Below are positions 6,001 to 9,000 of a stretch of DNA of 12,688 nt, piece by piece; within the stretch, counting starts at the first letter, position 1, and each line of letters opens with the position of its first letter. Origin of the DNA: a virus. Taxonomy: Duplodnaviria > Heunggongvirae > Uroviricota > Caudoviricetes. Location: IMG/VR virus record IMGVR_UViG_2675903324_000010. The stretch is one strand, 5' to 3'. Position numbers: made by a program.

Positions 6001-9000
6001 ACAACCACGGGCTTTTACCACTGGATGAGATAGGACAGGCAGCAAGCGCCCGTGATGTGTACGTATCGGCTTATACGCTGTTTAACGGCTTCGGGAAATT
6101 ACAGGGGGCAAAAGACGGCGGAAACAGGGAGCTGAAAAGCTGGCGCACAGTCGCTATCAGCACCGGAGAAGTGGACATTGAAACATTCCTCAAAACCGAG
6201 GGGATAAAGGTAAAAGTAGGGCAGCTTGTCCGCCTGCTTAATGTACCGATGGAGAAAGCCACGAAATTTCACGAATACAGCAACGGTAAGGAACATGCGG
6301 ACGCGTTAAAAGAAGCCTGGAAGGAAAACCACGGGGCGGCGGGTCGTGAGTGGGTTAAATGGCTGTCAGGCCACCAGCAGGAGGCAAAGGATACGGTAAG
6401 GGAATGCCGCGAACGGTGGCGCAACCTGATACCGGAGAGCTACGGCGAGCAGGTCCACCGCGTGGGTGAACGTTTCGCCATACTGGAGGCCGCGCTTGTG
6501 CTTTCCGGTCATGTAACTGGCTGGGCCGTGCAGGAATGCCGCGACGCGATACTGCACAACTTTAATGCCTGGGTGAAGGTGTTCGGTACGGGGAACAAGG
6601 AGCACAAGCAGATTATTGAACAGGCTGAGGCGTTTCTTGCGGCCTATGGGATGAGCAGGTTTGCCCCTGTCAATTATGACCCCGCCAGTCTGCCGATTCC
6701 TGAACTGTACGGCTACAGGGAAAGCGACGGGCGTTATGACGAACCTGTTTTGTTCTACGTGCTGCCGGATCCGTTCGGCTCACATGTGGCGAATGGATTT
6801 AACAAGGATGCCGTGGCAAAAGTTCTTCATGAAGCCGGAATGCTGAAAAGACCATCCAGCGGTCGTGGGTGGCAAATCAGGACACCACGGCTAAAACACC
6901 TGAAAGGGGCGCGCCTGAGAGTGTACGGCCTTTTGCTGGCGCAGGACCACGACACGGAAAGCGATTAATCTCGCGTATAGGCGATGAAAAAATGTTGTCC
7001 CAGTTGTCCCACTACGTATTAATTGATTTTACTAAAAATACAATAAAAAAGTGGGACAACATTACAGCATTTTGGGACGACATCGGGGTATTTTGGGACG
7101 ACATAGCGACATTTTGGGACGACACAACGAGCGTTAATTACCTTGGCTGGTGACTGGGACAACATAAAACCCCTCATGTTGTCCCAAAATCGGCTAATGT
7201 TGTCCCAGTTTTCGGAGTGTATTTTTAATTAAATCAATGGATTATATGTAAGTGGGACAACTGGGACAACTGGGACAACTGGGACGACGTGTTTTTGTAT
7301 ATATATAAAAAAATAAATTGAGAGGATGAATTCATGAGTGAAATTACTGTTAAAAATATCTCACCTGCGGTAGCTGGCTGGTGGGCGAAGTTCAGAGACG
7401 ACGACGGCACGGAATGGTACAGCCCGATTGCTGCATGGGCGCTTTGTGAGGTTGATTATTTCGGTGCGGGGAACACCCGCCGCGAAATCTTACCCGTGCT
7501 GACCAGTGAGCTTGGTATGGGTCCGCACCCATCCGATGAAGGCTATTGCGCGTGTCTGTATCTGCCTGATGAAAAGTTCACGCTCTCAGGTGAGCAGGGT
7601 TCTTTTGCCTGGTATCCGGTGAACAGCAACAGTAATAACGGCAATTCGGGGGCTGAATCATGACGGCGAAGCACACAAAAAACCATAATTCCGTGGTGAA
7701 GTTCGTATCTGCCCGTGGCAGGCCAACGCTTTTAGTGCCAGGAAAACATCTGCATTACTGCGATGAAAATCATATCCCGATCCTGATTGTCTGGAAGCGA
7801 ACGGTATACGCCGATGTGACATGGCTGAATGATTCGCTGATGTTGATACACCGTGACCTGTTTGAACGTGAAGAGTTCCGGCGGGATATTGAAGAGCGGG
7901 CAGAAAAAATCTATGAGAAATATTCAGCAAACAGCAAAAGATCCGCACGGGCGATCACTTACCATTTCATGACGCTGTATGACCTGAAAGCGGAAGATGC
8001 AGAAAAAGCGGCATGTGATTTATTCGATATGACAATGGGTATTATCCAGGCGTACCGGAACAGGGAGCGCAGACCATGACAGCACAGATTGCAGCTTACG
8101 GACGGCTGGTGGACGATCCGCAGGAAAAACAGACCAGCAAGGGCACACCGATGACGCTGGCACGTATGGCGGTATCAGTACCGTGCCATAACGCAGATGA
8201 CGGGCAGACGACGTTATGGCTATCAGTCCTGGCATTTGGTAAGCAGGCCGACGCGCTGGCGAGACATGAAAAAGGTGACCTTATCAGCGTTGCAGGTAAT
8301 ATGCAGATAAGCCAGTGGACCGGACAGAACGGAGAAACACGGCAGGGCTGGCAGGTTATCGCTGACAGCGTAATCAGTGCCCGTTCGGCGCGTCCTGGCG
8401 GGAAGCGGGGGCAACAGGGGAAGGCGACCGAAGCACTGGAAAGAGCAAAACGACAGACCGGACAGCAGGGAAATCAGCCACCAGCGGGAGGTGATGACCC
8501 GTTCTCTGACGATATTCCGTTCTGAATGACAGGAGCACAACATGAACCAGCAGACCACACAACAGGACCAGACCACACGCAGACCCACGGAGCGCCCATC
8601 ATGGCGACACATGACGAAGAGGCAGCGAAAAAACCGCAGACGTATAAACCGACTGGCTGAGTACTGGCCTGAACTGTTTGGGGCAGAGAATATAAAACCC
8701 CTTAAGGCTGGCGTGATACACGATATGTTGAAGGACGCGAAGGCACGGGAATTACCGATTGGTCATGGCGTATTACGTGGCGCATTAACTTCATACATCC
8801 ACACGACGCGATACCTGAAAGCCATTGTCGCTGGCGGCGCACGGTATGGACTGAACGGGCAACCTTGCGGTGAAGTCACGGAAGAAGATAAATCAGTAGC
8901 CAGCGAACTACTGAAACGGAGACTGGCGCAAATTAAGCAGCAAAACATCCAGCGGCAGGATACGGGAGGTGGTGAGAGTGATAACAGACAGCGTGGCACA

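Follow-up and report, generated by a model that had tools for sequence, protein, structure and literature searches.

Where does an integrated phage satellite of Escherichia coli begin its own replication, and what part do the short repeats behind its replicase gene play in this? The question is raised by a stretch of 12,688 nucleotides (IMG/VR record IMGVR_UViG_2675903324_000010, Caudoviricetes; the whole stretch is hereafter the window), in which the gene for a DUF927 protein, Rep, is followed by an array of 9-bp repeats, or iterons, of the sequence TGGGACRAC, where R is A or G. Comparative analysis, the homology of Rep, and experiments on sister elements together make it very probable that positions 6994-7333 are the vegetative replication origin of a satellite of the phage-inducible chromosomal island (PICI) type, cognate to the Rep protein encoded upstream. 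A Rep-binding origin had already been proposed in a sequence-only reading of this DNA, and that proposal is supported by the position of the array, the homology of Rep, recurrence of the layout in 77 of 82 loci, the conserved repeats, and low duplex stability.

Iterons and A+T-rich DNA downstream of rep

The repeat TGGGACRAC is present as 13 exact copies, all within 295 bp (6994-7288) and none elsewhere in the window, compared with a chance expectation of 0.20 and a maximum of 2 in dinucleotide-preserving shuffles. Allowing one mismatch added no site across the 12,688 bases, where 5.1 were expected by chance. The excess of exact copies and the lack of one-mismatch copies elsewhere thus show that the repeat is strongly enriched and confined to the array. 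The first iteron begins 25 bp past the rep stop codon (6968); nine copies are direct and four inverted (Table 1). The sequence-only reading had given the same total, four inverted copies, and four in head-to-tail tandem, all of which we recovered, while the three copies it had placed at 21-bp spacing proved to be four. These 21-bp-spaced iterons share an extended unit close to cATTTTGGGACRACAt. The array as a whole has an approximate dyad centred near 7130, with arms of 47 nt matching at 79%, 20 nt at 100%, and 21 nt at 90%. The last of these, the 21-nt repeat, links the A+T-rich segments 7012-7051 and 7208-7252, and a perfect 11-bp inverted repeat pairs 7155-7165 with 7176-7186.

Opposed iterons of the kind seen in the origins of PICIs and of Staphylococcus aureus pathogenicity islands (SaPIs) surround A+T-rich DNA twice in the array. 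Those at 6994/7003 (- strand) and 7052-7115 (+ strand) lie round 7012-7051, and those at 7178/7199 (- strand) and 7253-7280 (+ strand) lie round 7208-7252. As in these islands, the array is located immediately 3' of rep. The A+T-rich stretches described earlier as unwinding-like include the two 30-bp duplexes of lowest stability in the window, which start at 7292 (the lowest) and 7017 and are about 4 standard deviations off the window mean. The third segment (7289-7333) extends into the ribosome-binding site of the open reading frame (ORF) at 7334-7663.

Other sequence signals were sought in the array. No DnaA box (TTWTNCACA within one mismatch) was found in 6960-7340, and no GATC site in the array. 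A match to the integration host factor (IHF) consensus, AATCAATGGATTA, is present in segment 2 at 7232-7244 and is kept in the related loci L001 and L006 (loci are given here by L numbers), not family-wide; as it is conserved in close relatives only, we do not claim IHF as part of the mechanism. A promoter-like site on the - strand at 7241-7269 (TTGTCC, 17 nt, TATAAT; 10/12 matches), the -35 hexamer of which falls inside an iteron, faces left into the origin; L006 has not kept it, and such matches are no commoner than in shuffled sequence. The Rfam scan of 6800-7500 revealed no known RNA, its two matches, both to eukaryotic families, being sub-threshold and due to chance.

Rep and the co-variation of its tail with the iteron

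The earlier call of a replicase at 4827-6968 is borne out, as the product is a DUF927 helicase-initiator related to SaPI5 PriRep and to the helicase Cch of the staphylococcal cassette chromosome mec (SCCmec). SaPI5 PriRep (8TCH) was matched at an E value of 4.5e-12 by the single sequence and at 2.9e-18 by a 23-sequence profile. Cch (5DGK) was matched at 1.4e-9 with the profile and also by the single sequence. An AlphaFold model built from a 40-sequence alignment (mean predicted local distance difference test score, pLDDT, 68.5) is confident for the N-terminal domain and for parts of the core, and in a Foldseek search with this model Cch alone was matched significantly (E 1e-13). The homology to 8TCH and 5DGK and the Foldseek match place Rep among the AAA+ self-loading-helicase initiators. 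The profile alignment to Cch reaches the C-terminal '...AGML..GRGYQ.K..R..GKQ' segment of Rep, and from it a winged-helix fold is presumed for the putative iteron reader. Residues 1-160 (window 4827-5300) are 62% identical to the N-terminus of Pri-Rep from the E. coli PICI EcCICFT073, the remainder of the two proteins being unrelated. This N-terminal domain aligns with the TOPRIM region of 918-residue relatives and is without the Glu and DxD motifs and the zinc finger, which suggests that the window Rep probably has no primase activity.

For the survey of related loci, one genome per species was scanned, giving 80 Enterobacterales loci with Rep relatives, to which look-ups in plasmids, E. coli genomes, and metagenomes were added; an array was scored where one 8-9-mer occurred three or more times in the 480 bp that follow the rep stop codon. 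Such an array was present 3' of rep in 77 of the 82 loci analysed and fell into 18 different core classes. A full layout like that of the window was seen in 37 of the 77. It starts with two or three inverted tandem copies 22-30 bp (~25 bp) after the rep stop, continues with 50-66 bp of A+T-rich DNA and three to five direct copies at 11- or 21-bp steps, then has a ~43-bp spacer and one to three inverted copies at 21 bp, and ends with ~53 bp of A+T-rich DNA and two or three tandem copies, often with a T-run and a TATATA-like motif. The left tandem pair or triplet is at the same position in most related loci. When each whole ~7.7-kb locus was scanned, the least stable 30-bp stretch fell inside the ~270-bp array in 27 of the 37 full-layout loci, and in 21 of the 37 it was the first A+T-rich gap that held the least stable stretch of the locus. 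At the position of segment 3, 23 of the 37 have a T-run and then a TATATA-like motif, whatever the iteron class. Between the window and two elements with the same iteron, iteron columns are 85-86% identical, compared with 41-55% for the rest of the origin; conservation of the iterons while the spacers drift points to selection on the repeats.

A shorter form of the array, consisting of the left module only (~135 bp; L003 6540-6652, and L020, L021, L031, L037, and others), has two or three inverted tandem copies, an A+T gap, and three direct copies. One module may be enough for function, and the second module of the window may be an inverted duplication.

The iteron class follows the C-terminal tail of Rep more closely than it follows other parts of the protein. 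The nearest neighbour in Rep residues 661-705 predicted the class in 62 of 75 cases, compared with 44 of 75 for the helicase core and 38 of 75 for the N-terminus. The Rep of L006 is 91% identical to the window Rep in the core, yet its iteron is TGAGGCAAC; that of L012 is only 64% identical in the core, yet its iteron is TGGGACAAC, as in the window. Both tails are 73% identical to the window tail, differing at different positions. The tail reads GWQIRTPRLKHLKGARLRVYGL in the window, L091, and L096, all with TGGGACRAC, and GWKIKTPRLKNLNGAQLWAYGM in L006, with TGAGGCAAC, while RG[YF]Q[RQ]KSPR..[GK]RQ..V.V is found in all 41 loci with TGAACCAAC. Examples of tail/iteron pairs are WQIRTPRLKHLKGARLRVY with TGGGACAAC, WKIKTPRLKNLNGAQLWAY with TGAGGCAAC, and YQRKSPRIDGRQINVYV with TGAACCAAC. 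Short and long forms of Rep share iteron classes; TGAACCAAC is used by Reps of ~710 residues and by Reps of ~920 residues that have a zinc-finger/TOPRIM primase domain. It is possible, and we put it forward tentatively, that the DUF927 satellite Reps of Enterobacterales work on an origin scaffold that is constant except for the central bases of the 9-bp iteron, which a few residues in the last ~45 amino acids would set. If true, the window and its relatives would form a natural series for reading the recognition code of a helicase-initiator, and the arrangement would account for the coexistence of many satellites in a single cell with no cross-replication. Both the two-module build with its dyad symmetry and the Chi or Chi-like octamer in the middle of the array may belong to the mechanism as hitherto undescribed parts.

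The same comparisons bear on whether the repeats could instead be mainly an operator or promoter for the operon from 7334 on (two small ORFs, ssb, proQ, and perC), bound by Rep or by another regulator. Between the four tandem repeats and the ATG at 7334 there are 45 bp, and the T-run/TATATA-like element behind the repeats recurs in relatives; an iteron also supplies the -35 hexamer of one promoter-like match, though on the - strand. The promoter/terminator scan, however, gave no excess over shuffled sequence, with two promoter matches compared with 1.4, and none on the + strand at the end of the tandem repeats. As many as 23 different downstream ORF families lie 3' of TGAACCAAC arrays, and the same AlpA (WP_000002831.1) is found with three iterons, TGGGACRAC, TGAGGCAAC, and, beside a different replicase, TGTTCACC. 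Iterons that diverge from A+T-rich DNA beside a helicase-initiator gene are instead the layout of tested PICI and SaPI origins. We consider it very unlikely that the array is mainly an operator, while a dual role of the array, as origin and in promoter control, may exist. The product of ORF 7334-7663 was considered as the binder of the repeats and rejected, since L006, L012, and L002 share the array layout but do not have the gene, and the family of this ORF is also found 3' of TAACCCGT and TGACACACT arrays.

Plasmid centromeres are likewise arrays of short direct and inverted repeats, which would suit a partition site, and a packaging (cos/pac) site can be considered along with it. No ParA/ParB/ParM-type or terminase gene was found in the window. 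Further, the iteron core co-varies with the helicase tail and with no packaging gene, and TGAACCAAC is used both by L002, which is capsid-forming and has its own terminase, and by L003, which has no terminase. The cos sites of E. coli PICIs are treated as separate from the origin (PMC6092414). A partition or packaging role appears extremely improbable.

Several points weigh against reading the array as the cognate origin of Rep. We know of no binding or replication assay for any DUF927-type enterobacterial Rep. The Rep model is unreliable at residues 588-713 (pLDDT < 50). Rep is seemingly without primase motifs, so that a host enzyme would have to do the priming. Partial decay of the island is possible, given the frameshifted DUF4222 gene just upstream of rep; this gene overlaps the rep start codon in most relatives and is interrupted in the window, L001, and L097. 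As the Rep tail and the origin are adjacent, linkage could account for part of their co-variation. Two loci break the pairing described above. The L092 Rep (P0004) is 86% identical to the window Rep, with ~80% identity in the tail and an identical WQIRTPRLKHLKGA segment, but is followed by TATCCACC repeats; ~15 of its last 75 residues differ from the window, and its origin has a different, CFT073-like layout. The L097 origin is 86% identical to that of L092 and has TATCCGCC repeats, but its Rep tail is quite different and like that of L004. The DnaA-box core TTATCCAC lies inside some of the L092 and L097 repeats. The L092 Rep may have been retargeted through changes at a few residues (SSG to DNE, R696Q, V699A), or L092 may be a recombinant with mismatched Rep and origin. 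Collectively, L092 and L097 contradict a simple rule in which the Rep tail alone sets the iteron.

The island around the probable origin

By its genes, through which it is known here, the window is a PICI-like integrative satellite of E. coli. All assigned genes are on the + strand and run rightward (Table 1), and the element has the set of traits used for Gram-negative PICIs, namely int, alpA, and rep, rightward genes, a length of ~8-15 kb, its own attachment (att) site, and no tail or lysis genes. No capsid, small-terminase (terS), or lysis gene was found in the window. As it is without a capsid-remodelling or small-terminase gene, the island would fall under 'type C' of the PICI-like elements as classified by de Sousa et al. 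(PMC10085698), like EcCIMP1, a mobilisable 'type C' PICI-like element (PMC11773190). An SSB gene is present 3' of the origin in most relatives.

The array was found in five complete E. coli genomes at 96-97% identity. A nearly identical island in E. coli 2015C-3121 adjoins tRNA-Gly, downstream of actS. A search of phage DNA with the origin gave no match, and a search of plasmid DNA gave matches only to short stretches of rep coding sequence; this origin allele is thus not seen on deposited plasmids or phages. Relatives with a DUF927 Rep also occur as circular records of 10-16 kb that still carry int, including a capsid-forming Klebsiella PICI, and these are probably excised, replicating satellites.

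Table 1. Coordinates of the proposed origin, of rep, and of neighbouring features (window positions unless a locus or residues are given)
Feature	Position	Strand	Remarks
Left tandem iteron pair	6994-7011 (6994, 7003)	-	9-bp period; 2 x GTTGTCCCA read on + strand
A+T-rich segment 1, candidate melting site	7012-7051		82% A+T; second least stable 30-bp stretch (7017)
Four iterons at exact 21-bp steps	7052-7123 (7052, 7073, 7094, 7115)	+	Two helical turns; extended unit ~ATTTTGGGACRACAT
Array centre	31 bp between 7123 and 7155		Holds Chi-like octamer
Chi-like octamer GCTGGTGA	7146-7153	+	One-off Chi variant; at dyad centre
One + iteron opposite two - iterons	7155-7207: 7155 (+); 7178, 7199 (-)		- copies 21 bp apart
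A+T-rich segment 2	7208-7252		76% A+T; partly inverted copy of segment 1
Four head-to-tail iterons	7253-7288 (7253, 7262, 7271, 7280)	+	9-bp period
A+T-rich segment 3, GTGTTTTTGTATATATATAAAAAAATAAA	7289-7333		80% A+T; least stable DNA in window
Rep, DUF927 helicase-initiator, 713 amino acids	4827-6968	+	Pfam DUF927, E 1.5e-41; PHROG 'DNA primase', 6e-148
Regions of Rep	residues 1-160; ~160-600; last ~45-110		Domain in common with EcCICFT073 Pri-Rep; AAA+ core; presumed iteron reader
P4-type tyrosine integrase (int)	1-1254	+	Window begins at int start codon
AlpA	1798-2001	+	
Rha/Ash fusion, 580 amino acids	2066-3808	+	
Icd-like protein and small ORFs	between Rha/Ash and rep	+	
DUF4222 small gene	about 4535-4830		Interrupted by frameshifts or stops
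Two small ORFs	directly 3' of array; first is 7334-7663	+	
SSB	8076-8525	+	Probable replication accessory; Pfam SSB, 9e-16
ProQ/FinO RNA chaperone	8542-9009	+	
PerC-family activator	8969-9259	+	
Q-type antiterminator	12017-12415	+	
Exceptional origins in other loci	L092 3643-4090; L097 2603-3010		

Chi sites are frequent in the island. The 12.7 kb hold 12 Chi octamers (GCTGGTGG), eight of them on the + strand (265, 2435, 2564, 3502, 5778, 7377, 8105, 12232) and the others on the - strand (6371, 8478, 9732, 12666); shuffles give 0.41. The average density in E. coli is about one per 4.6 kb. At the intergenic position equivalent to that of the Chi-like octamer in the array, L009, L021, L037, L038, L076, and L087 have an exact Chi, and several further Chi sites of relatives are in the first codons of the SSB gene. 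These sites may protect replicating or linear satellite DNA from RecBCD.

The assignment would give a functional name to a widespread protein, as the 'DUF927 domain-containing protein', which has 3,555 database matches at E <= 1e-10 and is named only DUF927 in almost every source, would be the initiator of enterobacterial phage satellites, with its cognate origin marked. Origin and iteron class would be practical typing markers for islands that carry PerC-type virulence regulators, and would help to predict which islands replicate or interfere in one cell. Near-identical helicase cores with different iterons are suited to specificity swaps, the clearest pair being the window (TGGGACAAC) and L006 (TGAGGCAAC).

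Proposed mechanism and comparison with known origins

Upon induction of the island, rep would be expressed and would yield a self-loading hexameric helicase of the SaPI-Rep/Cch class, a DUF927 AAA+ protein. Its C-terminal domain is predicted to read the 9-bp iteron TGGGACRAC. As the iterons point away from 7012-7051 and from 7208-7252, Rep assemblies would flank both of these segments; the third segment would have iterons on its left side only. Rep could then open the easily melted DNA without DnaA and thread itself on as the replicative helicase, after which host primase and polymerase and the island SSB would take over. Rep would be expected to bind TGGGACAAC and TGGGACGAC, and not TGAGGCAAC (L006), TGAACCAAC (L002), or TATCCACC (L092). 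In this scheme, Rep binding, melting of the origin, the exact start site, and independence from host initiators are what we infer.

The sequence-only reading had called the layout a classic Rep-binding origin. The Rep-binding origin stands, while the comparison with the classic plasmid type, in which RepA or pi acts with DnaA, does not; the layout is that of PICIs and SaPIs with a self-loading helicase. Iteron plasmids (pSC101, R6K, RK2, and the P1/F type) resemble the window in having helically phased 21-bp initiator sites beside A+T-rich DNA, and there is a possible IHF site in the window and its two closest relatives. They differ in their initiators, which are the winged-helix proteins RepA, pi, and TrfA rather than a hexameric AAA+ helicase, in having DnaA boxes, in core repeats of 17-22 bp compared with 9 bp in the window, and in the position of the array, which is upstream of rep with an autoregulated promoter in the plasmids and downstream in the window. 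The AAA+ Rep, the lack of a DnaA box and of a GATC site, and the array 3' of rep rule out a plasmid-type iteron origin.

Phage P4 offers another parallel, as it is a satellite with a primase-helicase-initiator and has a cluster of iterons in both orientations directly 3' of the replicase gene. In its GenBank record crr is made up of two repeats of 120 bp directly behind alpha, each containing five type-1 repeats, with both orientations present, and TGTTCACC is what the record annotates as the type-1 repeat in ori and in crr. The same TGTTCACC repeats are found in the sister islands L007 (7530-7790, tRNA-Gly) and L008 (O157:H7, between yicC and dinD), where the replicase in front of them is a different one, with the annotation 'DNA primase family protein'. 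Both islands have the same SSB-ProQ-PerC-Q right half as the window, and L007 also has an identical AlpA. On sequence comparison, rep and origin thus behave as one exchangeable cassette among sister islands. The P4 system suggests that the window array could be a cis-acting replication enhancer like crr, with the start site elsewhere, as the P4 ori cluster is 4.5 kb away. The location of crr immediately 3' of alpha, the resemblance of the two-module build of the window to the crr duplication, and the P4-type repeats of L007 and L008 are in line with this. However, the window, which starts at the int start codon and so does not take in a few hundred bases of the element left of int, has a single cluster, with no second one even at one mismatch, whereas P4 has ori and a distant crr; its repeat is a different one, of 9 bp compared with 8 bp; and BLASTP of Rep against P4 alpha gave no significant match. 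In addition, the rep-proximal segment was sufficient in the tested E. coli PICI (PMC6092414). An enhancer with the start site elsewhere therefore has very little probability.

The Reps of SaPIs are self-loading hexameric helicases, the C-terminal winged helix of which binds iterons immediately downstream of rep (PMC9371898), and they bind and melt the origin without ATP (PMC9371898). SaPI origins have iterons of 5-6 bp on both sides of an A+T-rich region, in opposite directions (PMC9371898). The window is alike in that its Rep is homologous by sequence and fold, its origin is directly downstream of rep and has no DnaA box, and A+T-rich DNA is flanked on either side by two or more short iterons in opposed directions, out of a total of 6-12 or more. 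It differs in having iterons of 9 bp, two internal A+T-rich segments and a third at the right edge compared with one central region, a Gram-negative host, and low sequence identity to SaPI5 PriRep. The likeness to Cch of SCCmec (5DGK) is one of protein homology alone.

A close comparison is with EcCICFT073, where the origin is immediately 3' of pri-rep and has an A+T-rich region with a set of iterons on either side (Fillol-Salom et al. 2018, PMC6092414). A pri-rep-ori segment of this island maintains a temperature-sensitive plasmid only with both rep and ori intact (PMC6092414), and four Pri-Rep alleles have been noted among E. coli PICIs (PMC6092414). Its gene order is int, alpA, icd-like, small ORFs, DUF4222, pri-rep, gap, small ORF, ssb, perC, and capsid genes, and its origin has CTGTCTACC-type repeats in an arrangement comparable to that of the window. 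EcCIATCC25922, which has the same att site as EcCIED1a, also has a CFT073-type Rep. The window and EcCICFT073 agree in gene order from int to perC, in an origin immediately 3' of rep with iterons in both orientations round A+T-rich DNA, and in the N-terminal 160 residues of Rep. They differ in the helicase and DNA-reading part of Rep, which in the window is DUF927 and unrelated in sequence, in the iteron (TGGGACRAC compared with CTGTCTACC), in the longer, two-module array of the window with its strict 21-bp and 9-bp phasing, and in the capsid genes, which the window is without. The window array is thus a further allele, of the DUF927-Rep/TGGGACRAC kind, of the known PICI/SaPI origin type, and calls for no new mechanism.

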